Virus record (IMG/VR): IMGVR_UViG_3300020202_000892
Coordinates: 1,667 to 65,666 of that record
DNA: 64,000 bases
Strand: one strand, 5' to 3'
Origin: a virus
Positions 18,779-30,226 of this stretch are shown here, piece after piece (position 1 is the first letter of the stretch; each line of letters opens with the position of its first letter). The position numbers and the translations under genes are program-made. The notes under the pieces were generated by a model. That model ran no database searches. It had not been told where the DNA came from and worked only from the letters and a program-made list of their open reading frames with translations.

Positions 18779-19023
18779 CCGAACAGAGCGACACCGAGCC
18801 GAAGATCGATCTGGGCGAGATCCTCGCGGAGATGGACGAACTCGGTCGCGCGAAGTTCGACGCCGCGCTGGAGCGGGTGAAGTCGCGCAAGCTCGCCGAG
18901 GTGAACCAGGCGTTGCAGGCCCGGATCCGCGAGCTGGAGGGCCAGGCACAGCTCAACGGCGTTGCCACGCGCATGGCCGCTGAACTCGCCAAGCACGATC
19001 GCCCGGCAGTCGACCGTGGCTGA
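18775..19023 (+). CDS. Hypothetical coiled-coil protein
   Basis: GTGA overlap with the tail gene; helical sequence. Confidence 0.65.
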   Translation: MTEQSDTEPKIDLGEILAEMDELGRAKFDAALERVKSRKLAEVNQALQARIRELEGQAQLNGVATRMAAELAKHDRPAVDRG

Positions 19024-19366
19024 TGACCCGTTCGTCTCCGACGAGGAGATGCCCTACCGGCACAACCCCATCCGCAACCTGCCGTGGCTGGACACCAAGA
19101 CCGAGCTCGAGGTGTTCCAGCACCGGGCCGGGCAGTCGATCCGGCTCGCCGAGTGGTGCGAGGGGGAGGTCGCCTTCACCGACCAGCTCGTGGTGCGGGT
19201 GCCGGGCACGCCGCCCTCGATCGCGCGGCTGGGCGACTTCGTGGTGACCGACGGCGAGCGGTACTGGGTGGAGCCGGCTGACGGCTTCTTCCTGCGCTAC
19301 TGGCCGACGGGCCGCGACCCGGGCTGGTCGCACCGCTGCTACATGAACTGGGAGGAGCAGTCGTGA
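19016..19366 (+). CDS. Hypothetical protein (GDFVV-type beta domain)
   Basis: Coupled overlaps; ARLGDFVVTDGERYWVEPADGFFLRY. Confidence 0.6.
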   Translation: MADDPFVSDEEMPYRHNPIRNLPWLDTKTELEVFQHRAGQSIRLAEWCEGEVAFTDQLVVRVPGTPPSIARLGDFVVTDGERYWVEPADGFFLRYWPTGRDPGWSHRCYMNWEEQS

Positions 19367-19725
19367 CGACCCCGCTGGGCACCGACACCGTGCACTACAC
19401 CTGGCGGATCGAGGCGGGCGAGCGCGAGCGGCTCCAGATCCCGATCTTCGGTGCGGACGGCACCACGCCGCAGGACGTCACCGACTACACGGTCGACGCG
19501 AAGATCAGGACGGAGCAGGGCGGCGAGGTGCTCTACACCTTTCCGGCCGAGCACATCGAGATCACCGACAACGTCATCGAACTGCGGATCCCTGGCCCGA
19601 CCTCTGCCGCCTGGACCTGGACGGTCGGCTGGTGGCGAGTCGTGATCACCGCCCCGGAGCCCGACCCCACTGATCCGGACTCCAGCCGGGTCGTGCAAGG
19701 CGCCTTCATCGTCGACCCCGACTGA
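19363..19725 (+). CDS. Virion/baseplate accessory protein
   Basis: DAKIRTEQGGEVLYTF and SRVVQGAFIVDP, resembling BppU N-terminal-like proteins. Confidence 0.6.
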   Translation: MTTPLGTDTVHYTWRIEAGERERLQIPIFGADGTTPQDVTDYTVDAKIRTEQGGEVLYTFPAEHIEITDNVIELRIPGPTSAAWTWTVGWWRVVITAPEPDPTDPDSSRVVQGAFIVDPD

Positions 19726-19752
19726 TCCCCCGACTGATTCCCGGAGCTCCCC

Positions 19753-20163
19753 ATGGCACTGTCTCTCGCCACCACGGCGCGCAACGCGATGTGCGACGCG
19801 CTGGTCGACCTGATCGACGCCGGTGCGGCCGCAGGCACCATCCAGATCCGCACCGGCACCCGCCCGGCCAACCCCAACACCGCGGCGACCGGCACCCTGC
19901 TGGCCACCGTGACGCTGATCGACCCGGCCTTCGGCTCGGCGGCCTCCGGCGTGGCCACGCTGAGCGACCCTGTCGCGGTCACCGCGGTGGCGACCGGCAC
20001 GGCGACGTGGTTCCGTGCACTGGACTCCAACAGCAATGCCGTGATGGACGGCGATGTGACGGCGACCGGCGGTGGCGGCGACCTGACGCTGGCCACCACG
20101 TCGATCACCTCGGGGCTCTCGGTGGACATCACCGGCGGCACGGTCACGGTGCCCGTTTCCTGA
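19753..20163 (+). CDS. Virion structural protein (minor tail)
   Basis: ARNAMCDALVDLID...TGTATWFRA...DLTLATTSITSG motif typical of actinophage tail regions. Confidence 0.7.
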   Translation: MALSLATTARNAMCDALVDLIDAGAAAGTIQIRTGTRPANPNTAATGTLLATVTLIDPAFGSAASGVATLSDPVAVTAVATGTATWFRALDSNSNAVMDGDVTATGGGGDLTLATTSITSGLSVDITGGTVTVPVS

Positions 20164-20208
20164 GGCCACCAGGCAACCAACCGCGGGCCGACGAGCGAGG
20201 GGTGAGGC

Positions 20209-22497
20209 GTGAGCTTCCCGACCCGGAGCCAGTTCACGACCTCCAGCCAGCCCTCGCTCACCTCGCCGACCAACACCTACACGTTCGGCGTGGCGTGCGT
20301 GGCCGGGAACTTGATCGCCATCTGCCTGGCGGGCGACAAGAACACCGGCACGATCAGCGTCACCGACAACATAGGCACCAACGGCGGGTTGAACCCGTGG
20401 ATCATCGAGGTGTCGGTTCCGGGCACCTCGGTTTCCACCTACGTCGCCTGGAAGGTCGCCGTCGGCGGCGAGACGGTCGTCACCGTCACCACCTCGGCCA
20501 ACTCGACCACCGGTAACACCGGCTACGGCGAGGAGCAGGTCGACGACGGGGCGGGCGCCTGGACGGTGGTCGCGAAGGCGGTCCCGGCCTACAGCGACAC
20601 CTCCGTCACGTCCACGAGTTCCGGCACGACCGACACCGCCGACTACGACGGGCGGGCGCTGGCCGTGGGCGCCATCGACTCGATGTCCAACCTCACCTCC
20701 GACACCGGGCCGACCTTCACCAACTTCACCCGGATCAACGTCCCTACCCGCCCGTCCGGCTCCGGCGGCGGGAACGCTGGATGCTACGTCGGCGAGGCGA
20801 ACCTGGCGGCCGGAGCCACCACGTCCACCACGTTCGCCACCAACGGCGGCAGTGACCAGCTGTTCGCTGCCATCGCCGCGTTCGGGCGCGTGGAGGCATC
20901 GTCCACCACCGGCTCGCTCTCAGCCACCGCGCCGAAGCCGACGAGCGCAATCAGCGGTACGGTCAGGGCGACCGGCGCGATGGATACCGCCTCACCACGG
21001 CCCACCACGTCGGTTGCAGGGACGGTGACGGCGACTGCGGCCATCGCGGGTACCACCCCCCGGCCCGCGGCCGCAGTCACCGGCACCGTTGGCCACGTCG
21101 CCACGCTCTCGGCCACCGCACCGATGCCGACCGGCTCGATCGTCGGCGACGTCCGCGCGACCGGGGCGCTCGCCGGGGTGTCGCCGAAGCCGACCGCAGC
21201 GCTGACCGGCACCGCCGAGGCGCCGCCGTTGCCCAGCGAGGTGCTCGACCTGTCCTACTGGCATCTCACCACGCCGGAGGACAGCGGCGAGGGGGACGCC
21301 GAGCAGATCGATCAACCCGAGTTGGCCACCTACTCCTCGGCGAACTTCTACGTCGACGAGCAGGGCCGGGTCGTCTGCCGCGCGCCGGTGAACGGATTCA
21401 CCACCTCCGGCGCCAGCGGCGCGACCCGCATGGAGCTGCGGCAGCGGCGCAAGGGCACCTACGCACTGGCCGCCATCGACCCGCACGCGGCCGGGCGCTG
21501 GCAGATGACCGGCACCTCCTATGTGGACGCCACCTCCATCACCGGCGGGTCGGCGCCGCGCAAGGAGGGGATCTTCGCCCAGATCCACGGAGCCGGCGAC
21601 TCGCCGATCCCGCTGATCCTGGCAGCGGAGTACCACGTCGCCACCCCGCGCGTGCGGATCTACAAGAACGGCCCCGGGTTCGACAACCCGGTCACGGGCA
21701 TCGACCCGGACACGCCGATCAGTTATCGGATCCGCATCGAGAACGACCGGCTGAAGCTCTGGGTGATCGCCGGACTGCACACCGACCTGCCGCCGATCAC
21801 CAGCACCGCCCCCTACGACTGGCCGATCTCGGACTTCACCGATGACAGCGGCTGGTACTACAAGGATGGTGCCTACAACAAGACGCTGGTCACGAGCGGG
21901 TCGAGCGGCGAGTTCATCTCGAAGATCGCTCACCTGGAGATCCTCGAGCCGGCCGACGCCGACCCGTCCGTTGCCTCTGGCCCACTCGTTGCGATCACCC
22001 CGAAGCCGACCGCGGTGTTCGCAGCGACGATCACCGACGCCGCCCAGTTCTCGGGCACGACACCGTCGCCGAGTGCGAGCTTGAGCGGCACAGTGGTCGC
22101 GGCAGGCACGCTGTCGGCCACCACCCCGCGAGTCACCGGCGCCATCGACGCCACCGGCGAAGCGCGCGGACCGCTGGCTGCGGTCACACCGTCGCCGAGC
22201 ATCGCGCTGAGCGGCACGGTGACCGCGGGAGGAACGCTTTCCGGAGCTCTGCCGCTCCCGGTCGCAGCGCTCGCCGGGGACGTCGCCACGTTGACCGGGG
22301 TGCTCGCTGCCGTCACGCCACTGCCTCGCGCCGCGCTTCACGGCCAGGCAGGGGGCGACGGCTCCATCGAAGCGGGAACACCGACGCACGTTTCCGCTGT
22401 GCGGGTCGGCTCGTTGACGCGTGAGAGGGGGCCGCAGGCGGGCGTGCCACGAAAGGTGGTGACGGCCGGTGCGGGATCGCCAAGAGCAACCGACTGA
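20209..22497 (+). CDS. Tail fibre/spike-like protein with internal polysaccharide lyase family 7 (alginate lyase-like) domain
   Basis: LDLSYWHLTTP, RMELRQ, AQIHG and YYKDGAYNK match the PL7 motifs; flanked by GxLxAxxPxPxxxxxG repeats. Confidence 0.8.
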   Translation: MSFPTRSQFTTSSQPSLTSPTNTYTFGVACVAGNLIAICLAGDKNTGTISVTDNIGTNGGLNPWIIEVSVPGTSVSTYVAWKVAVGGETVVTVTTSANSTTGNTGYGEEQVDDGAGAWTVVAKAVPAYSDTSVTSTSSGTTDTADYDGRALAVGAIDSMSNLTSDTGPTFTNFTRINVPTRPSGSGGGNAGCYVGEANLAAGATTSTTFATNGGSDQLFAAIAAFGRVEASSTTGSLSATAPKPTSAISGTVRATGAMDTASPRPTTSVAGTVTATAAIAGTTPRPAAAVTGTVGHVATLSATAPMPTGSIVGDVRATGALAGVSPKPTAALTGTAEAPPLPSEVLDLSYWHLTTPEDSGEGDAEQIDQPELATYSSANFYVDEQGRVVCRAPVNGFTTSGASGATRMELRQRRKGTYALAAIDPHAAGRWQMTGTSYVDATSITGGSAPRKEGIFAQIHGAGDSPIPLILAAEYHVATPRVRIYKNGPGFDNPVTGIDPDTPISYRIRIENDRLKLWVIAGLHTDLPPITSTAPYDWPISDFTDDSGWYYKDGAYNKTLVTSGSSGEFISKIAHLEILEPADADPSVASGPLVAITPKPTAVFAATITDAAQFSGTTPSPSASLSGTVVAAGTLSATTPRVTGAIDATGEARGPLAAVTPSPSIALSGTVTAGGTLSGALPLPVAALAGDVATLTGVLAAVTPLPRAALHGQAGGDGSIEAGTPTHVSAVRVGSLTRERGPQAGVPRKVVTAGAGSPRATD

Positions 22498-22558
22498 CCC
22501 CCGACCTGGAGGACTGATCCCTGCGTGCACGTGACCGGCCGAGCGTGGGGGGTCGTCC

Positions 22559-22849
22559 ATGTCCGTCGAGCTGATCTCGGCGATCTTCACCGGGTTGACC
22601 GGCCTGCTGGCCGCCGTCGCCGCCGTGCTCGCCAATCGCGCGCGCCGGGTGAGCGAGGACGGCCGGTACTACCGCCGCCAGGCCCGCGACCTGCAGCGCA
22701 AGCTCCTGGCTGCGCTTGGGCACATCAACCTGCTCGAGGAGCACCTGATCCACGCACGCCGCCCTGTTCCCGCACGTCCCGAGATCCTGGAGTCGGACGA
22801 CGACGATGACGGGACACCACAGCCTGCGGGTGCCCATGCCGCCACATGA
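22559..22849 (+). CDS. Membrane protein (single N-terminal TM plus coiled coil)
   Basis: ISAIFTGLTGLLAAVAAVL hydrophobic helix. Confidence 0.7.
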   Translation: MSVELISAIFTGLTGLLAAVAAVLANRARRVSEDGRYYRRQARDLQRKLLAALGHINLLEEHLIHARRPVPARPEILESDDDDDGTPQPAGAHAAT

Positions 22850-22868
22850 GTCGATCTTGAGTGACGGT

Positions 22869-23654
22869 ATGCACCGTCGCGACGACAAGCCGGCCGCGCG
22901 CTGGCCGGTCGCTGCTGTCGCCCTGCTCGGCATCGTCGCAGTGGTCATCGGCATCTTCGCCACCAGCGGCGCCGGCCAGGTCGAAGACCAGCGGGACACT
23001 GCGGTCGAGCAGGTGCGTGACCTCGGGCGCGACGTGGCGGCGGCGTGCGCGCGCGGGGAGGTCATCCAGTCCCCCGACGGCCGGAATCTGTGCGCGCGGG
23101 CCGCCGAGGCGCAGTCCGACCCGATCCCTGGCGCCGTGCAGGGTGAACCCGGTCGGCCGCCGACGCTCGAGGAGATCGAGGCCGCGGTGGCCGCCTACCT
23201 GGCGCGCAACCCGCCGCCGGCCGGGCGCCCTCCCACCACGGAAGAGGTAGCTGCTGCCGTCGCGGAGTACCTCACAGCCAACCCGCCAGAGCCCGGCCGA
23301 CCGCCGACCGCCGAGGAGATCTCCAACGCGGTCACGGCCTACTTCGCCGCCAACCCGGTGCGCGACGGCGAGGACGGGCAGGACGGCAGGGACGGTGTGG
23401 ACGGCAAGGATGGCGAACCGGGCCGTCCACCGACCCAGGAGGAGATCGACGCGGCCGTCGCGGCCTACCTCGCCGAGAACCCGCCGCCGCCCGGCCCGAC
23501 GTGCCCGCCCGGTTCCACGCTGCGGCCGGTGTTGTTCGCCAGCGGGGAGCGCGGCCTCGGCTGCGTGACCGAAGAGACCCCGCCGACGACGGAGGCCCCA
23601 CCGCCGACGACCGACGCAGAGGAACCCGACGGGGGACTGCTCGATGGTGGATGA
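22869..23654 (+). CDS. Membrane-anchored repeat protein
   Basis: N-terminal TM; four GRPPTxEExxxAVxxYxxxNP repeats; short GXY run. Confidence 0.7.
   Translation: MHRRDDKPAARWPVAAVALLGIVAVVIGIFATSGAGQVEDQRDTAVEQVRDLGRDVAAACARGEVIQSPDGRNLCARAAEAQSDPIPGAVQGEPGRPPTLEEIEAAVAAYLARNPPPAGRPPTTEEVAAAVAEYLTANPPEPGRPPTAEEISNAVTAYFAANPVRDGEDGQDGRDGVDGKDGEPGRPPTQEEIDAAVAAYLAENPPPPGPTCPPGSTLRPVLFASGERGLGCVTEETPPTTEAPPPTTDAEEPDGGLLDGG
23146..23500 (+). repeat. Imperfect tandem coding repeats (GRPPTxEEI...NPP) with an intervening GxD run
   Basis: Visible in translation and in DNA (ccgccgac...gaggagatc...gcctacct...aacccgcc). Confidence 0.8.
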
Positions 23655-24003
23655 CCGCTCGCCGATGCTGCAGATGGACGGGATCCGCATCGCCACGCTG
23701 GCCGTGCTGTCCCTGGTCACCATCACCGTGGTCGCCCTGGGCGTGTTCCTGGTGACCTACGTGCAGGACCAGCGACTGATCAACGAGTGCTATCAGCGCC
23801 AGATCGTCGCGCTCACCGACTGGGCCGACAACGCGGTGCAGGCCGGCAAGGCCGACCGACAGGCGCAGCGAGAGCTGTTGCTGGCCCGCGCCAACACGCC
23901 CGAAGACCGCCAGGCCGTGCTCGATCGCTACCTGGCGCAGCTCGACGAGGCCGATCGCACCCGGCGCTCGGCCCCGGTCCCCGAACAACGATGTGCTCGC
24001 TGA
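23644..24003 (+). CDS. Membrane protein
   Basis: IATLAVLSLVTITVVALGVFLV TM followed by a helical region with two Cys. Confidence 0.7.
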   Translation: MVDDRSPMLQMDGIRIATLAVLSLVTITVVALGVFLVTYVQDQRLINECYQRQIVALTDWADNAVQAGKADRQAQRELLLARANTPEDRQAVLDRYLAQLDEADRTRRSAPVPEQRCAR

Positions 24004-24041
24004 GGCGTCTCTCCCAGAGGGGGACGTCGTTAAGGAGAGGC

Positions 24042-24674
24042 ATGAAGAAGATCGCTCTGACCGTCGGCGCTGTGCTGGCGCTGTCCCTCGGGACGGCACC
24101 GCTCGCGTTCGCGGACGAACGCGACTGCACCCGCGCACAGCGTGAGGTGGCCCGTGTCGAGCTCCGACTGGCCGGGTTGGTCACCGAGGAGCGCAACGCC
24201 GAGCGCGCTGCTCTCGAGGCCGCACAGGCCGCGCTGAACACCGCGCAGGACGCCCTGCGCAACGCCGCCCCGGGCGTCGACCTGGGCCCGCTGCGGGCCC
24301 AGGTCGACACCGCTCGGGAGGCACGCGACGCCGCACGCGAGGTGCTGAACACCGACTCGCGCCGGCTGGTGGACGTGCGCGCCGATCTCACGGCCGCCAT
24401 CGCGGTCCGGGACAAGGCGTGCGGCGACACCCCGCCGACGACCGCGCCCACCACGACGCCTGCGCCGACCACCACCCCCGCGCCGGCCGATGACGTCGAC
24501 TGCGCCGAGGTCTCGGACGCGCGCGCTCAGCAGATCCTGGACGCCGACAAGAGCGACCCGCACAACCTCGACGACGACAACGACGGGGTCGCCTGCGAGG
24601 AGGACGTCACGGTCGTGCGCGATCGGGTGGTCGTTCCCCAGGGCGGTGTGCAGACCGACGGCGGGGTGGAGTGA
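24042..24674 (+). CDS. Secreted protein with Excalibur-like Ca-binding domain and C-terminal PxGGVxT sorting-like motif
   Basis: AAGGAGAGG RBS; signal peptide MKKIALTVGAVLALSLGTAPLAFA; DVDC...DPHNLDDDNDGVACE; ends VPQGGVQTDGGVE. Confidence 0.8.
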   Translation: MKKIALTVGAVLALSLGTAPLAFADERDCTRAQREVARVELRLAGLVTEERNAERAALEAAQAALNTAQDALRNAAPGVDLGPLRAQVDTAREARDAAREVLNTDSRRLVDVRADLTAAIAVRDKACGDTPPTTAPTTTPAPTTTPAPADDVDCAEVSDARAQQILDADKSDPHNLDDDNDGVACEEDVTVVRDRVVVPQGGVQTDGGVE

Positions 24675-25324
24675 CCTCTCGCAAACTGCTCGTTCTCGTG
24701 CTCGGTGCCGTGCTCGCACTCAGCGGGTGCGGCACCGAGTTCGTGGAGGGCCAGACCACCCAGCCACGGCCCACGCACGAGCCGGACGCTGAGCTCGACC
24801 CCGTCACGGTGGTCAACCCGACCGCGGTCGGCATCCCGAAGCTCGGCGCGTGGTCCACGCTGATCCCGCTCGGCCTCACCGAGCATGACTGTCCGGCCGA
24901 CACGCCGTGCCTGCAGCCGCCCCCGGCCGACCAGCCGATGCAGGCGGGGTGGTACGCCGGTGCGGATCCGCGCATCCCTGAGGGCGACGGCGACGAGTAC
25001 CAGCCGGGTGAGCCCGGTCCCGCGGTCATCGCCGGGCACGTCAACGGCTCCGGGGGCCAGGACGGGATCTTCGCCAAGCTGCACGAGCTCGCGCCTGGTG
25101 ACCAGATCGTGGTTGAGCGCAACGACGAGTCCACCCCGCAACCCCCGTTGACGTTCGTGGTCGACGCGGTGGCCAGCTTCCCGAAGAACCAGTTCCCCAC
25201 CGAGGACGTGTACGGGTCCACCGACACCCCGGAGCTGCGCCTGATCACCTGCGGCGGCGAGTTCGACCGCGGGGCCGGGCACTACCGGGACAACGTCGTG
25301 GTCTGGGCGTCGCTGGTCTCGTGA
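24671..25324 (+). CDS. Class F sortase (lipoprotein signal)
   Basis: LALSGC lipobox; PGEPGPAVIAGHV and LRLITCGGEFD...HYRDNVVV catalytic His/Cys motifs. Confidence 0.9.
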   Translation: MTSRKLLVLVLGAVLALSGCGTEFVEGQTTQPRPTHEPDAELDPVTVVNPTAVGIPKLGAWSTLIPLGLTEHDCPADTPCLQPPPADQPMQAGWYAGADPRIPEGDGDEYQPGEPGPAVIAGHVNGSGGQDGIFAKLHELAPGDQIVVERNDESTPQPPLTFVVDAVASFPKNQFPTEDVYGSTDTPELRLITCGGEFDRGAGHYRDNVVVWASLVS

Positions 25325-25482
25325 ACTGGCGCTGGGGTTGGCGGTGCGTGAGCTGTCACCACCGCAAGGACGCGCACTGGCTGCACAAGGGCCCCTGCCT
25401 GGTCTGCTACTGCCCGCGCTACTGCCCGCCGTGGTGGGTGTTGGTGAAGAACGCGATCCGGAGGTGGTGGCGTGCTGCCTGA
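25321..25482 (+). CDS. Small Cys/His/Trp-rich protein (53 aa, not in ORF track)
   Basis: GTGA overlap with sortase stop; CVSCHH...H...CLVCYC. Confidence 0.6.
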   Translation: MNWRWGWRCVSCHHRKDAHWLHKGPCLVCYCPRYCPPWWVLVKNAIRRWWRAA

Positions 25483-25714
25483 GGCCGAGGTCTACCGGCG
25501 GTGGCTGGTCTTCGCCGCGCTGCTGCCCTACGCGGTGCACCACGACCATCGGGCCGAGCGTGAGGCCTACGAGCGCCGGATGTCACAGGAGCGCGCGGCA
25601 CGCCTGCTGAACCGCATCCCGGTCCAGCGCGCACCCATCGAACCCCGGCGGGCCCTGAGCGGCCTGCCGTCCCGTCCGAACACCGCTCGGGGGATGAGGA
25701 GCAGGCGCCCATGA
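25472..25714 (+). CDS. Hypothetical protein
   Basis: Coupled overlaps on both sides. Confidence 0.5.
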   Translation: MLPEAEVYRRWLVFAALLPYAVHHDHRAEREAYERRMSQERAARLLNRIPVQRAPIEPRRALSGLPSRPNTARGMRSRRP

Positions 25715-26109
25715 CCTGGATCGACGACTACCTGCCGGTCAGCCGCGGGGAGCTGAATCGCCGCCTGAAGAGCCTCTGGGACTACGCCCTGTCCCAGACG
25801 GAGCACATCACGAAGATCGGAGAGACCGCCATGGCACGTGTAGACGAGGTGGTGGCCCGCCTCGGCGCGGCTACCGACGAGATCGCGCGCGACCTGGACG
25901 CGCTGCGTCAGGAAGTCGCCGGACTCGACGAGTCGGTCGCGGCGAAGTTCGAGCCGCTGGTGAACCGACTCGAGCAGATGGGGCAGGACCCGCAGAACCC
26001 GGTGCCGGACGCGCCGGTCGACGGCGACGCGGGTGCCGGCACCGACGGCGAGGGCCCCGAGGTCGTCAACCCGACCCCGGACGCGCAGGACAACCCCGAC
26101 AACCGCTGA
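25711..26109 (+). CDS. Hypothetical protein (possible internal start MARVDEVV)
   Basis: ATGA overlap; coiled coil and acidic tail. Confidence 0.6.
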   Translation: MTWIDDYLPVSRGELNRRLKSLWDYALSQTEHITKIGETAMARVDEVVARLGAATDEIARDLDALRQEVAGLDESVAAKFEPLVNRLEQMGQDPQNPVPDAPVDGDAGAGTDGEGPEVVNPTPDAQDNPDNR

Positions 26110-26178
26110 CACATCCGATCTGGGGCGTCCCGCCGTTGCTCCCCAGCGGCGGGGCGTCCCTCCTTCACGAGGGGAGCC

Positions 26179-26448
26179 GTGGAGTTGGGCGACTGGTACC
26201 AGGACCGCGACGGCAACTGGCAGTACGACGAGGGCGCACCCACGCCCAGCACCGAGGCGACCCAGATCCGGCCCCGCACCCGGGCCGTGCTGGACGCGAT
26301 CCACGGCGACGCGCCGACCCCGCCGGACGTGCCGCGAGCCGGCGACATCGGAGACTGGATCGACCCCAACGCACCGGACCCCACGCCGCCCGAGGTGACC
26401 GATCCGCAGGATCCGAGCTACGTGCACCCCTGGTTCGGTGACCGGTGA
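26179..26448 (+). CDS. Hypothetical acidic Pro-rich protein
   Basis: GGGGAG RBS; overlaps endolysin start. Confidence 0.55.
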   Translation: MELGDWYQDRDGNWQYDEGAPTPSTEATQIRPRTRAVLDAIHGDAPTPPDVPRAGDIGDWIDPNAPDPTPPEVTDPQDPSYVHPWFGDR

Positions 26449-27233
26449 GCCTGCTGCGGAAGTACGAGCCGGCGACCCGGGCCACTGGCGGCCCCGCGCC
26501 GGGCGCGAAGGCGCTGATGGCCTGGTTCCTGGGTAACTTCGCTCACCAGGGCGGCACCAACCTCGGCATCTACAACAACCGCACGGTGCGCGGCGGCTCG
26601 ACCAAGAGCCTGCACGCGGAGGGGCGCGCCTGCGACTTCGGCATCCGCCCACACGGCGCGGAGTACGGCACGCTGCTGGCCGAGCGACTGCGCTCCGTCT
26701 CGGGTGAGCTGGGCATCCAGCTGATCATCTGGAACCGGCGCATCTGGTCGGGTGCCTACCCCGACGCGGGCTGGCGCCGCTACACCGGGACGAACCCGCA
26801 TCTGGATCACCTGCATGTCGAGCTGACCCGAGAGGCAGCTGCGAGCCTGACCCCACAGCACATCCAGGCCGTGCTGTCGCCGCCGCGTCACCCCCGCGGC
26901 CCTGCACCCGTTGTGCAGGCGAAGGCTCCCCCGCCCCCCGTCTCGAAGGACACCTGCATGATCATCAAGGCGCAGCCCGACAAGTCCAAGCCGGAGTACG
27001 TCGCCGCCCTGCTGACCGGCTTCAACTTCGTCGGCCTCGGCCGCACCGAGACGCCAAGCGATCAGCAGGCCAAGGACATGGGCCTGCCCGTGCTCTGGGT
27101 CGAGTACGCCACGTACCAGGAATTCGACCGGCGCAGCCACGTGATGCTCGGCGACGGGGCGCCTCGGGTCAATCGGCTCGGCGACCAGTCGGCCGCCGCG
27201 ACGAGCCCCCCAAACTCCCCCAGCCCGTCATAG
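26445..27233 (+). CDS. Endolysin, M15-like Zn peptidase domain
   Basis: IYNNRTVRGGS.KSLHAEGRACDF and HLDHLHVE (SxH...D / HxH) motifs; next to holin. Confidence 0.82.
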   Translation: MSLLRKYEPATRATGGPAPGAKALMAWFLGNFAHQGGTNLGIYNNRTVRGGSTKSLHAEGRACDFGIRPHGAEYGTLLAERLRSVSGELGIQLIIWNRRIWSGAYPDAGWRRYTGTNPHLDHLHVELTREAAASLTPQHIQAVLSPPRHPRGPAPVVQAKAPPPPVSKDTCMIIKAQPDKSKPEYVAALLTGFNFVGLGRTETPSDQQAKDMGLPVLWVEYATYQEFDRRSHVMLGDGAPRVNRLGDQSAAATSPPNSPSPS

Positions 27234-27262
27234 CGGCGGGCGCGCTCCCTGAGGAGGACTCC

Positions 27263-27553
27263 ATGACCGAGTCGAGCTACGACCCCCCGGTCGACCCCAA
27301 CCCGGGCGTACCCGACCACGCCGCGCCCGCGGTGAAGACGGAGGGACTCTCGCCCAAGGCGCTGGCCTCCTCGGCCGTCGGGCTGGGCGTCGGCATCCTG
27401 ATCGCCGTGCTGAACGCGGTGCAGGACAACGACCTGCTCGGCACGCTGCCCCCGGCGCTGCAGGTGATCCTGCTCGCCGCCATTCCCCCGGTGCTGACGT
27501 TCCTGGCCGCCTACGGCGCGTCCCCCGGCAACGTCACCGTGAAGAGGAGCTGA
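27263..27553 (+). CDS. Holin
   Basis: GAGGAGG RBS; two TM helices; SPK-start and basic C-terminus; follows endolysin. Confidence 0.8.
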   Translation: MTESSYDPPVDPNPGVPDHAAPAVKTEGLSPKALASSAVGLGVGILIAVLNAVQDNDLLGTLPPALQVILLAAIPPVLTFLAAYGASPGNVTVKRS

Positions 27554-27555
27554 CC

Positions 27556-27720
27556 ATGTTCGCTGTCGCCTCGGCGATTGCCGCGCTGCTGTGCTTCCTG
27601 CTGGCGTTCATCCTTGGCCTCGCAGGTACGGAGATCGGTGTCGACCTGGTCACGCTCGGGTTCGTGTTCGTGGCCACGTGGATGCTGGTGACCAGCCTGC
27701 CCGCCCGAGCTGTCAGGTGA
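27556..27720 (+). CDS. Small two-TM membrane protein (54 aa)
   Basis: GAGGAG RBS; fully hydrophobic MFAVASAIAALLCFLLAFILG... Confidence 0.65.
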   Translation: MFAVASAIAALLCFLLAFILGLAGTEIGVDLVTLGFVFVATWMLVTSLPARAVR

Positions 27721-27780
27721 TCTTCACTTTGCCCCGCACCGTCAGGTAGGCTCGACCCCAATCGAGTGTCCTCTCGGTTC

Positions 27781-27820
27781 GAACAGGCCCCCTCCGCTCC
27801 GGCGTTGAGGGGGCCTGTTC
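27781..27820. terminator. Hairpin terminator between convergent late and early operons
   Basis: GAACAGGCCCCCTC / GAGGGGGCCTGTTC inverted repeat. Confidence 0.75.
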
Positions 27821-27993
27821 GTCATGTCCGGAAGTTGACCGCGCGCCCGGACCGATGTCAGCTGCCGGTGCGCCGCGCTACCCCGAGCTCGCCTGGCCGG
27901 GCTCACTCGGATCGGTCGACGCCCCCTCGGACCCCGGCGGCGCCGCTCGCTGACTGCAGCACTCCGACGCGGCCCTCAGAACGCACGTGCCGG

Positions 27994-28221
27994 TCAGCGT
28001 AGCCGGAAGCGCCGCACGCCGTCCTCACGCACGGTGCCGTCCCACTCGTAGATCAGCGGGGCGGGTAGTTCGAGCGACGCGTGGGGGTGCTTGTAGAGCT
28101 CCATGGATTCGAGCAGCGTTGGCCCCACCGGCAGGCGGAGGATTTTCGGCATCGTCCCGTCGGGGACGGCGAGCAGGGTGCCGTCCTTGATGCCACCGAT
28201 CAGCTCGATAGTGATGCTCAC
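27994..28221 (-). CDS. Hypothetical protein
   Basis: IELIGGIKDG motif; coupled overlap. Confidence 0.6.
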   Translation of the reverse strand: MSITIELIGGIKDGTLLAVPDGTMPKILRLPVGPTLLESMELYKHPHASLELPAPLIYEWDGTVREDGVRRFRLR

Positions 28222-28454
28222 CGGATCGACCTGGCCACGTAGCGGGCGCTCATCGCCGCGGTGTAGAGCGTGCAGCCGACCGAGCCGTGACAGATCGTCG
28301 CCTGGCAGTGACCGGACAGGTCGGGCGTGTGCTCGCGGATCATCCGGTCGATGTTCTCCAGCGGGCTGAAACGCTGCAGGGTTCTCACGATCATGAGCAT
28401 GTCCGCGGCGTCCACTGGAGACCTCTCCGTCGAGTTATCTGACGATCGTCGCAC
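28218..28454 (-). CDS. Hypothetical protein
   Basis: ORF track; start uncertain; H...C...C...C motif. Confidence 0.45.
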   Translation of the reverse strand: MRRSSDNSTERSPVDAADMLMIVRTLQRFSPLENIDRMIREHTPDLSGHCQATICHGSVGCTLYTAAMSARYVARSIR

Positions 28455-28484
28455 AGGTGGCAGCGCGTTACACCCGTGTCGCGC

Positions 28485-30050
28485 TCAGCTCTTGCCCAGT
28501 GCCCAGCGCAGCGCGCCGGTGGTCGCGTCGACGAGGTCGTCGTTGATCCGCGGACTCGGGAACATGACCATTTCGCGCTCCAGCTCCACGAACTCCTTGG
28601 CATGGAAGACGCGGTCGGTCTCGTACCACTGTAGTGCCTGCTCGACCCGGGCCTGCTTCGAGCTCGATGCCCAGTCGGTGATCAGATCCAGCCCGCGCGG
28701 CAGCCGAGCGTGTGACGGGTTGAGCATCTCCTTCCACAGGTCGCCGCCGTTGTTCACCTCGACGATGACCGTGCGCAGCGTCGGCTTGCGCGCGTGCAGG
28801 CGGTGGATCCGCTGGCGCAGCTGCTCGGCCGAGATCCGGAAGGCCTGCGCATACTCGATCACTGCGCGCTGCCGAGCCGGGTCGCGGCCGACGATGACCA
28901 TCGCCGTGCGGTCCGACGTCGCCTTCTTCGTGACCGCGCCGTCGATGAACAGGCAGTGCTCCCAGATCCCGCCGAAGCTCTCCGACGTCCGTCGCTTGAA
29001 CATGTCCTCCCTCCAGAAGCTGCCGGCGTCCTCGCCGAACGGTGAGGGGTCGAGCAGGTAGTTGAGCTGGAACTCGCGTGGCGTCTCATCCTTGGCGTTG
29101 CGGCGCAGGTTCTCGCCGAGGTGGGTCTCGGTCAGCGGCCAGCGCTCCGGCCACAGCGAGCGCTCCTCGCCGGTGTCCGGGTCGATCCGGATCCCGGGGA
29201 ACAGCCGCACCGTGATCTCGTTGTTCGCTACCCAGTCGATGTGGCGCCGTCCGCGGCCATGCTCGGCGACCCGGTGCATCACCGAGTCGTAGGAGGTAGT
29301 GGTGCCGGCTAGGAGGAACGCGGCGTGCGGGGCACCCATCGGGAGCACCGCCGCCTTGATCGCCGTCTCGATCTTGGACTTCTCCTTCTCCGGCAGCACC
29401 TCTTCGAGCGGCTCGATGTCGTCGCACACGAGCATGTCTGGGCGCGCGGAGCCGGACTTCTTGCCCAGCGTGTTCGAGCCCAGGCCCGCGGCGGCGATCG
29501 TCGCCCCGCCCCGGACCACCAACCGGTTGGTGTCGGAGGAGCCCGCGCGGCGGGCCGGTCGCAGGTGCGCGTAGTCCTGCAACAGCAGGTCGTTCTCGGC
29601 CAGCTCCCGGCGCAGGTTGGCCAACTGGTCGCGTGCCATGTTGTCGTTGTAGCTGAAGGCCATGAAGTACTCGCGGTGCCCGTGCGCCAGCGCCCACAGC
29701 GGCAGAATGAGGAAGCACCACGAGCTCTTCCCGACGCCGCGCGGCCCGACCCACGCCTCTCGCCAGCGCACCGGCTCGATCCAGTGCTTGCCGGCGCGCG
29801 ACAGCGCCAGGTGCATCTCGTTGAAGGTGGCCAGCGGTGGCGTGGTGCCCTGCAGCTTCAGGTGGTCCGAGAGGTAGACGATCGCGAAGTTCAGTGGCGA
29901 CTTGCGTGTGGACCGCTTGCGGTAGTCCGCCGAGGTGTCGACCAAGCGCGACCAGAGCGGCGAGACTTCCTTGCGGAACCATGGATTCCACGGACCCCGC
30001 GGTGCGCGCACCGTCGGCCGTGGTGGCGGGGGGACCAGCGCGAGGGTCAC
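28485..30050 (-). CDS. Second terminase large subunit-like protein (ATPase plus RNase H nuclease)
   Basis: Walker A GPRGVGKS, RPDMLVCDDIE Walker B, nuclease FIDGA..SDRTA, VEVNNGG, SKQAR, NDDLVDA; start set at the GTGA overlap. Confidence 0.88.
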   Translation of the reverse strand: MTLALVPPPPRPTVRAPRGPWNPWFRKEVSPLWSRLVDTSADYRKRSTRKSPLNFAIVYLSDHLKLQGTTPPLATFNEMHLALSRAGKHWIEPVRWREAWVGPRGVGKSSWCFLILPLWALAHGHREYFMAFSYNDNMARDQLANLRRELAENDLLLQDYAHLRPARRAGSSDTNRLVVRGGATIAAAGLGSNTLGKKSGSARPDMLVCDDIEPLEEVLPEKEKSKIETAIKAAVLPMGAPHAAFLLAGTTTSYDSVMHRVAEHGRGRRHIDWVANNEITVRLFPGIRIDPDTGEERSLWPERWPLTETHLGENLRRNAKDETPREFQLNYLLDPSPFGEDAGSFWREDMFKRRTSESFGGIWEHCLFIDGAVTKKATSDRTAMVIVGRDPARQRAVIEYAQAFRISAEQLRQRIHRLHARKPTLRTVIVEVNNGGDLWKEMLNPSHARLPRGLDLITDWASSSKQARVEQALQWYETDRVFHAKEFVELEREMVMFPSPRINDDLVDATTGALRWALGKS

Positions 30051-30226
30051 GTCTCCCGCCTCCACTCACTCTCGGATCGTTCGTATAGCCGGTACAGCGA
30101 CGGGTTCTCGTATGGGCAGGTGAGCAGCCTGCGTCGCGCCTCCTGCTCGTTGGAGGTCTCGCACCACACTCGGCCATCAGCCCCGGAGACCCGCCACCAT
30201 CGGCCGGGCACCCACTCCGCGGTCAT
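30047..30226 (-). CDS. Hypothetical protein
   Basis: ATGA overlap; WWRVSGADGRVWCETSNEQEA. Confidence 0.6.
   Translation of the reverse strand: MTAEWVPGRWWRVSGADGRVWCETSNEQEARRRLLTCPYENPSLYRLYERSESEWRRET

Follow-up and report, generated by a model that had tools for sequence, protein, structure and literature searches.

A phage-encoded class F-type sortase and its candidate tail-less substrate

Here, we describe a pair of overlapping genes located in a 64,000-nucleotide stretch of viral DNA (the window), which covers bases 1667-65666 of the 69,919-bp IMG/VR virus record IMGVR_UViG_3300020202_000892 (CheckV completeness 92%). The first open reading frame (ORF), ORF A (24042..24674), encodes a secreted protein of 210 amino acids that is a candidate sortase substrate, and the second, ORF B (24671..25324), encodes a lipoprotein sortase of 217 amino acids, which was assigned to the class F type by means of Pfam, NCBIfam, its predicted fold and its placement in a tree. 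All features are located on the + strand unless stated otherwise. On balance, the two genes probably represent a dedicated substrate-enzyme pair, which was captured from a host, became fixed between the tail-fibre and the lysis genes of the phage and fixes ORF A to the wall of the infected cell. Within this explanation, the reading of the C-terminal PxGGVxT(G/D)GG of ORF A as the sorting signal of ORF B, despite the missing membrane anchor, is well supported by sequence comparison.

The candidate sorting signal and its sortase

The strongest argument comes from two cellular proteins. P0158 (Pseudonocardia nigra, locus L005) and P0157 (Amycolatopsis pittospori, locus L006) are Excalibur proteins encoded directly 5' of a sortase gene with an overlap of four nucleotides, within chromosomal neighbourhoods that are ordinary and contain no lysis genes. 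The sortases of the P. nigra and A. pittospori cassettes pass the NCBIfam class F cut-off with 188.6 and 191.1 bits. P0157 and P0158 are homologous from end to end (42% identity, E 3e-28), and their alignment runs through KPVGGVATGG / FPLGGVATGG. P0158 stops at most four residues after this tag. In P0157, on the contrary, a linker, a hydrophobic helix and RRRAER come after the tag, and the whole forms a textbook tripartite sorting signal, in which GGVATGG takes the place of LPXTG; the same layout of tag, helix and basic tail is present in P0155. Since the tail-less P0158 is homologous to a protein with the full signal, the tag itself is likely the sortase signal.

This tag recurs in front of related sortases. 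A survey using a profile of 16 sortases revealed 30 loci in IMG/VR. In bacterial contigs restricted to one genome per species, it revealed more than 589, and the best 79 of these, mostly from Pseudonocardiaceae, form the cellular set. In the viral set, the reading frame whose end meets the sortase start nearly always closes with [VI]P.G[GA][VA].TG plus one to nine residues, and at least 23 of 26 loci have a 5' ORF with such an end. With a loose regular expression, 80 of the 103 loci examined, viral and cellular, have the tag at the C-terminus of the upstream ORF, compared to 74 of 5189 other six-frame ORFs of at least 80 amino acids (1.4%), which served as the background. Within the window it is present in ORF A only, the four further matches being out-of-frame noise ORFs on inspection. 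The upstream proteins have unrelated bodies and a common tag, as expected if the tag alone matters. Together with the overlap of the two genes, this recurrence is in line with the initial annotation, which had proposed ORF A as the candidate substrate coupled to the sortase.

Both forms of the signal are widespread. Among the 79 cellular loci, classed by eye and therefore counted approximately, about 30 display the motif with a transmembrane helix plus RRR, and the tail is short in about 37; TGFGGTAR, TGDGSLA and TGN are recurrent endings. The only viral contig group with a full transmembrane segment and RRR tail consists of L030, L031 and L032 (IMG/VR; about 4820-5791 in L030), in which the upstream protein carries YPVGGVVTGGGG, a hydrophobic segment and RRRAHRS. 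Therefore, both signal forms exist on viral contigs, as these full signals stand beside the tail-less loci. The upstream partner in another IMG/VR contig, L019, ends with APETGDGSTE, and the sortase of this contig belongs to another branch of the tree than that of the window.

In the window, the C-terminus of ORF A is VVVPQGGVQTDGGVE and is disordered in the AlphaFold2 model. Its tag is PQGGVQTDGGVE, with VVPQGGVQTDGGVE as the corresponding peptide, and the candidate sorting motif P199-Q-G-G-V-Q-T205-D-G-G-V-E210 (24636..24671) occupies the extreme C-terminus, where only five residues (DGGVE) follow Thr205, with no hydrophobic segment or basic tail; both of these elements are present in P0155 and P0157. 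A search of 5.8 billion proteins yielded 45 homologues of ORF A, nearly all of them metagenomic. Downstream of the signal peptide, only one Cys, P199, G201, G202 and T205 do not vary in the 32 homologues that were aligned (34-85% identity to ORF A). All homologues bearing the helical hairpin of ORF A end with [VIT]P.GGV.TGG followed by GPA, WKK or WRR, with three to four residues after the tag among the 45 homologues. TDGG is found in the window and in one relative (P0131), and all other aligned homologues have TGG, so that the family consensus is the TGG form, with VVPSGGVNTGGGPA as the consensus peptide. Because P0131 also carries TDGG, the Asp after Thr205 represents a variant of a sub-lineage and not a sequencing error. 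The initial annotation had named PxGGVxT(D)GG as the sorting signal; the invariant residues, the enrichment and the full signals in homologues speak for this motif, and only its Asp does not extend to the family.

With regard to a classical cell-wall sorting signal, a Sec signal peptide is present in ORF A by inspection. No LPXTG was found in ORF A: within PQGGVQTD only the Thr corresponds, plus the next Gly in relatives, and there was no match to the anchor families of NCBIfam and Pfam (TIGR01167 / PF00746).

ORF B displays the features of a complete sortase. The Pfam family Sortase (PF04203, peptidase C60) matches residues 110-216 with 62.5 bits against a cut-off of 26.6. The AlphaFold2 model has a mean predicted local distance difference test (pLDDT) score of 84, and all 50 PDB matches listed by Foldseek are sortases of the classes A, C, D and E (best E 3.8e-9); the eight-stranded beta-barrel of the sortase fold is thereby predicted for ORF B. 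The catalytic His123 (AGHV, 25037..25039) aligns to the GH motif of sortases and Cys194 (LITC, 25250..25252) to the Cys of TLxTC in class C, D and E sortases. Both are present in 61 of 61 homologues, among which Thr193 is invariant as well, so that the GHV and LITC motifs noticed initially are indeed intact.

The assignment to class F, which had also been made initially, stands in part. The best NCBIfam match of ORF B is class_F_sortase (NF033748) and the tree places it as a sister of accepted members, but its 149.9 bits stay below the cut-off of 166. Other members of the phage clade reach 136-148 bits and the sortases of the cellular cassettes 188-217 bits, and ORF B has extra loops relative to accepted class F members. 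A sequence search of the PDB with two profiles found no class F structure and only weak class C and D matches.

A further peculiarity is Asn208 (25292..25294). In an hhalign comparison to four class E sortases from Streptomyces and Amycolatopsis genomes, TC...H-R-LIVWG was paired with TC...Y-R-D-N-VVVWA, which puts Asn208 into the column of the class E catalytic Arg; in sortases, this Arg belongs to strand beta8. Asn occupies this position in 60 of 61 homologues, and Y-x-D-N is found in 103 of 107 class F-type sortases, viral as well as cellular, including members above the NCBIfam cut-off. No Arg after the TC motif is invariant in the 61 homologues; Arg190 is present in 55 and Arg206, two residues before Asn208, in 23 of them. 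Class F-type sortases may work with a His-Cys-Asn centre.

The two genes are tightly linked. The stop codon of ORF A (TGA, 24672-24674) and the GTG start of ORF B at 24671 result in a real GTGA overlap (24671..24674), which suggests translational coupling and is also present in the phage loci L002 and L003 and the cellular loci L005 and L006. Downstream of the start, LALSGC fits the lipobox [LVI][ASTVI][GAS]C after a hydrophobic signal, and ORF B is therefore a predicted lipoprotein with Cys20 in its L-S-G-C (24719..24730); Gly19 and Cys20 are kept in at least 90% of the 61 homologues. The overlap of a secreted protein with a lipoprotein sortase, as described initially, was thereby confirmed.

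ORF A starts with an ATG at 24042, and a Shine-Dalgarno-like AAGGAGAG (24032..24039), read from the sequence, ends two nucleotides before it. The signal peptide (residues 1-24, MKKIALTVGAVLALSLGTAPLAFA, 24042..24113) was recognized by inspection of the translation and comprises MKK, a hydrophobic core and AFA before DE, with the predicted cut after AFA; this n-h-c pattern is kept in the 32 homologues. It is followed by an antiparallel helical hairpin (about residues 25-127, 24114..24422), which is predicted to be stapled by a disulfide bond from Cys29 to the invariant Cys127. In the AlphaFold2 model, built with the 32 homologues, the hairpin spans residues 22-126 with helices at 22-73, 82-103 and 107-126 (pLDDT 93-99). 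A Foldseek search of the PDB with this model revealed only generic coiled-coil hairpins (E 0.1-1) and no match to AbpA, a tail-less sortase substrate of oral streptococci. The coiled-coil matches to the colicin R-domain, the SerRS arm, SipB, EnvC and SteB were rejected as functional clues to ORF A.

The hairpin is connected by the Pro/Thr-rich linker TPPTTAPTTTPAPTTTPAP (24423..24485, disordered, pLDDT < 50) to an Excalibur Ca-binding domain (residues 153-186, 24498..24599), which was detected by Pfam (PF05901, E 1e-4) with 23.0 bits, marginally above the cut-off of 22. Its DDDNDGVACE as well as Cys154 and Cys185 are kept in at least 90% of the homologues, and the AlphaFold2 model contains a small domain at residues 150-188. 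Inspection, model and Pfam thus agree with the initial description of a signal peptide, a coiled coil, a PT linker, an Excalibur-like loop and a C-terminal tag, and both domains named there, Sortase and Excalibur, are above their Pfam cut-offs. ORF A appears as a mosaic, in which a phage-type hairpin is combined with an Excalibur domain and a tag that it has in common with cellular proteins. The C-terminal Excalibur region and tag are 49% identical to those of P0158 over 49 amino acids, the phage versions of the partner have their own hairpin domain, and one homologue, P0145, consists of hairpin and tag without Excalibur.

Cellular origin, spread and gene neighbourhood

The origin of the pair was addressed with a quick IQ-TREE tree of 107 sortase domains, which was rooted at the midpoint and in which many deep forks are weak. 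Here, the sortase of the window and six other viral sequences form one clade, supported by 90 in the Shimodaira-Hasegawa-like approximate likelihood ratio test (SH-aLRT). This clade of seven is sister (SH-aLRT 86) to the cellular Excalibur-linked sortases of L005, L006, L100 and L101. Since the sisters L005 and L006 were scored and exceed the class F cut-off, this placement speaks for the class F type. As part of the explanation favoured here, the cassette would have been captured from a Pseudonocardiaceae-like host by an ancestor of a lineage of soil actinophages. Viral sequences occupy at least three separate positions in the tree, and as many as ten according to parsimony, which argues for capture on more than one occasion; due to the midpoint root and the weak deep forks, a direction is not claimed for every capture. 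On the same tree, L084 (labelled Streptomyces sp. MN03-5084-2B) and L102 (a metagenome-assembled genome labelled Brevundimonas) are nested among Amycolatopsis and Nakamurella, which suggests mislabelled or contaminated assemblies or a recent transfer.

Pairs of the Excalibur/sortase type are present on about 24 IMG/VR contigs. The pair to which the initial annotation had drawn attention therefore recurs in phages, but it is not peculiar to them, as it is also found in Pseudonocardiaceae chromosomes. The order fibre, membrane protein, ORF A, sortase, small ORFs, lysin and holin is kept in L007 and L008 and largely in L010 and L011 (35-83% protein identity), and in more distant phages the cassette also adjoins a homologue of the fibre, lysin or holin. 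A search for cassette-free relatives via the upstream membrane protein retrieved three contigs, all of which contain the cassette. In a search of sequencing runs, the stretch with the cassette was found nearly identical in two soil metagenomes from different studies.

Cultured phages present another picture. Neither a megablast search with 20000-28000 nor a tblastn search with the sortase gave a match in 50,697 phage records, and the PHROGs contain no sortase family and only a weak match to ORF A. This indicates that the pair is absent from resources on cultured phages. It also fits the initial remark that sortases are rarely described in phages, as does a preprint of October 2026 which calls sortase undocumented in viruses (bioRxiv 10.64898/2026.10.24.761521).

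The window has a G+C content of ~70%, and its first 27.7 kb encode on the + strand the portal, the major head protein, the tape measure, Dit and large tail proteins. After these structural genes and directly 5' of the cassette, a tail protein of 762 amino acids and a tail-fibre-like protein are encoded. The former (20209-22497) contains a Pfam Alginate_lyase2 domain (E 2e-20, residues 346-565) with repeats on both sides and is probably a virion depolymerase. The latter (22806..23654) matches the tail fibre PHROG 18350 (E 3e-8) and is syntenic in L007, L008, L010 and L011. Next to it lies a single-pass membrane protein of 119 amino acids with a helical ectodomain (23644..24003), which in close relatives is always located just 5' of the cassette. 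Its PHROG matches, to Rz-like and membrane proteins, are weak only. The ectodomain ends with a conserved Cys (…QRCAR), and the identity in close relatives amounts to 55-75%.

Downstream, a 53-amino-acid ORF rich in Cys and Trp (25321-25482) overlaps the sortase stop by four nucleotides (25321-25324); its identity amounts to 83% in L007 and 80% in L008, and it has no family match and may be part of the same unit as ORF A and ORF B. The probable endolysin (26445..27233) consists of an LAS/M15-like N-terminal domain, supported by weak PHROG and Pfam matches (Pfam E 0.086 only), and a wall-binding C-terminal domain of 111 amino acids, which is 56% identical to the Amidase_2 endolysin of L002/L008. 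The endolysin after the cassette swaps its catalytic modules: it is LAS/M15-like in the window, Amidase_2 in L002 (9316-10155) and CHAP in L003 (9266-10087), and the lysin candidate of the window and the L002 lysin have only the C-terminal ~110 amino acids in common, at 56% identity. A holin-like small membrane protein (27263..27553) with hydrophobic segments in its translation is kept after the lysin in L007 and L008 and has no family match. Directly after the lysis genes, a homologue of the terminase large subunit is encoded on the - strand (28485-30065, PHROG 38, E 3e-67); the portal and head genes lie at the window start.

ORF A and ORF B are thus placed between tail-fibre and lysis genes, as had been stated initially: a tail-fibre match lies 5' and an ORF which shares its C-terminal domain with an Amidase_2 endolysin lies 3'. 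A scan of 19000-28600 for promoters and terminators revealed nothing above the shuffled expectation; judging from the tight gene spacing, the cassette region may form a single operon. Furthermore, no integrase or resolvase was found in a search of the whole record (92% complete), which suggests a lytic lifestyle of the phage.

Proposed function and alternative readings

In the favoured explanation, ORF A and ORF B would be made together via the four-nucleotide overlap and exported by the Sec pathway. ORF B would be lipidated at Cys20 and reside on the outer face of the host membrane, and the signal peptide of ORF A would be removed. The sortase would then bind the flexible tag P-x-G-G-V-x-T-(G/D)-G-G and cut it after Thr205 by means of Cys194 and His123, resulting in a thioacyl intermediate. 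From there, ORF A would be handed to an amine, most probably of a peptidoglycan precursor or stem peptide, so that the Pro/Thr stalk would carry its hairpin and Excalibur domain, covalently bound to the cell wall of the infected host. We infer the export, the lipidation, the cleavage site and the acceptor from the features given above. With respect to the benefit for the phage, surface remodelling in the form of an exclusion of other phages or a masking of receptors on cells or debris is a guess.

That a signal without a tail can work is known from experiments on the AbpA-SrtB pair of oral streptococci, in which the tag LPKTS, followed by AVK only, is cut between T and S and the protein is anchored to the wall (PMC4974636).

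Several points weigh against this explanation. The class F score of ORF B is below the cut-off (149.9 versus 166 bits), and the Asn in the catalytic-Arg column means that its chemistry may depart from that of textbook sortases. The tag has neither the Leu-Pro of LPXTG nor a hydrophobic segment or a basic tail, so that it does not account for a retention of ORF A at the membrane, and in this phage it carries an Asp after Thr205 at the place of a near-invariant Gly. Furthermore, the lack of a detected integrase and the location of the cassette in a late-looking operon fit poorly with exclusion by classical lysogenic conversion, and the search of sequencing runs for the stretch returned soil DNA runs only and no RNA run. 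Finally, a quadruple deletion of class F genes in Actinoplanes missouriensis had no phenotype (PMC13251363).

Alternatively, the sortase would process ORF A without fixing it to peptidoglycan, either joining it with itself or another protein into a ladder or fibre or releasing it in a trimmed form. AbpA, the one proven tail-less substrate, is of the same design, with a coiled coil, a small globular domain and a tag plus three residues, and SrtB turns it into a ladder, much of which is shed (PMC4974636). In addition, ORF A without a membrane anchor would be poorly held near lipid II. However, no Lys is invariant in the 32 homologues, so that an acceptor of the pilin type is not evident, and the cellular homologues with transmembrane and RRR tails resemble ordinary wall-anchored proteins. 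We regard this reading as unlikely.

The tag could also act as a docking peptide which is not cleaved, in which case ORF A would regulate, chaperone or inhibit the sortase, and the true targets would be surface proteins of the host. The Asn at the catalytic-Arg position, the missing membrane anchor of ORF A, the Asp after Thr in this phage and the tight translational coupling would all be compatible with such a role. It is nevertheless improbable, since His and Cys are invariant in the sortase, homologues possess full sorting signals, and the partners elsewhere combine unrelated bodies with a common tag, which is expected of a sorting signal and not of a specific regulator.

Similarly low is the probability that the pair serves lysis, be it by remodelling or weakening of the wall or by the timing of lysis, in a spanin-like or hydrolase-regulating manner. 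Its place just 5' of the endolysin recurs in several phage lineages, overlapping genes with one lipoprotein recall spanins, and the upstream membrane protein has the weak Rz-like PHROG matches. Two-component spanins consist of a small outer-membrane lipoprotein and a coiled-coil partner of the inner membrane and belong to diderm hosts. Here, on the contrary, the lipoprotein consists of an entire sortase domain, and cellular chromosomes harbour the same cassette away from any lysis genes. Moreover, monoderm actinomycetes, the probable hosts, have no need of a spanin, and the matches of the coiled coil to EnvC and SteB did not reach significance. The spanin reading proper was rejected due to the full sortase domain, the cleavable signal and missing anchor of ORF A and the occurrence of the pair away from lysis genes in chromosomes.

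Finally, the pair could be passenger DNA without a role for the phage: a fragment recently acquired from the host, a chimera of the assembly or a moron in decay. The clearly cellular origin of the cassette and the nature of the record, an uncultivated metagenomic contig, would agree with this. We nevertheless regard it as very improbable. The cassette lies inside a phage genome with structural genes on one side and lysis genes on the other, and its synteny is retained in four or more related contigs (35-83% identity), where the frames are intact and neither the catalytic nor the tag residues vary. Furthermore, the phage versions have their own hairpin domain and their own clade, and the stretch was found in two soil samples.

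Beyond the wall-anchoring of ORF A in this one phage, a wider proposal is put forward only tentatively. PxGG[VA]xTG, with or without a membrane anchor, might be the general signal of class F, recognized by enzymes with a His-Cys-Asn centre, and phages might have captured such cassettes of one enzyme and one substrate repeatedly. A protein of the phage would thereby be attached covalently to the host wall during infection, where it could, for instance, keep out later phages or hide receptors on debris.

Relation to known sortases and implications

Class F is the largest class of sortases in filamentous actinomycetes, with five genes in S. coelicolor and four in Actinoplanes, and according to the literature its substrate, structure and phenotype are all unknown (PMC13251363, PMC11231552, PMC5148588); reviews likewise call its function and structure undetermined (PMC11231552, PMC8225981). 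The sole characterised enzyme, as far as it is cited in PMC8225981 and PMC13251363, is SrtF of Cutibacterium (Propionibacterium) acnes (Di Girolamo et al., 2019), which PMC8225981 reports to use LPXTG. This is in contrast to the PxGG[VA]xTG found on the partners of the sortase family of ORF B. The literature search found no publication on class F sortases in phages or on sortases in actinobacteriophages, and no paper in which class F sortases are connected with a PxGGVxTG tag or with Excalibur proteins.

ORF B resembles the cellular class F (NF033748, IPR042001) in its best family match, its sister position in the tree, the H...TC core, Y-x-D-N and the tagged partner upstream. It differs in being encoded by a phage, in its score under the cut-off, its extra loops and its predicted lipoprotein nature, and in a partner ending five residues after the Thr. 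The cassettes of L005 and L006 share with the phage pair the sequence of Excalibur and GGVxTGG tag, the four-nucleotide overlap with a class F sortase and the membership in sister clades. Unlike ORF A, their partners have two Excalibur domains and no hairpin, one has the full signal with transmembrane helix and RRR, and the context is chromosomal and not that of a phage.

A sortase-substrate cassette as such is already a known type. AbpA-SrtB likewise comprises a dedicated sortase beside a single substrate, which has a signal peptide, a helical coiled coil, a globular domain, a flexible tag and a three-residue tail without an anchor, and the cut takes place between Thr and a residue other than Gly. 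In contrast to ORF B, SrtB is a cellular class B enzyme of Bacillota acting on LPKTS, and no homology of AbpA to ORF A was detected in sequence or fold. In phages, 24 sortase B genes with classical substrates have been described from gut huge phages (bioRxiv 10.64898/2026.10.24.761521). Here, too, the putative substrate lies immediately 5' of the phage sortase, and the authors propose a display of phage proteins on the host wall. These are class B enzymes of Bacillota phages larger than 200 kb; their His-Cys-Arg triad is intact, and the substrates bear classical signals consisting of PXTG, a hydrophobic segment and a basic tail. The window, on the other hand, derives from an actinophage of 70 kb, whose sortase is of the class F type with Asn in place of the Arg and whose substrate tag has no tail. 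New in the present cassette is that it is of the class F type, tail-less and borne by a phage.

The tail-less signal and the Asn-containing enzyme may be of use for sortase-based protein ligation. With respect to phage biology, sortase-mediated remodelling of the surface by viruses would not be confined to the sortase B of huge phages and would extend to soil actinophages of ordinary size, in three or more separately placed lineages of the tree. For class F itself, the phage pair and the cellular cassettes supply a concrete candidate signal and a 1:1 pair of enzyme and substrate. If these assignments are true, the accepted rules of how sortases recognize their substrates and catalyse the reaction would have to be extended to a tail-less signal and to an Asn in place of the Arg, and the small phage pair would offer a minimal system, already at hand, with which the function of class F could be solved.

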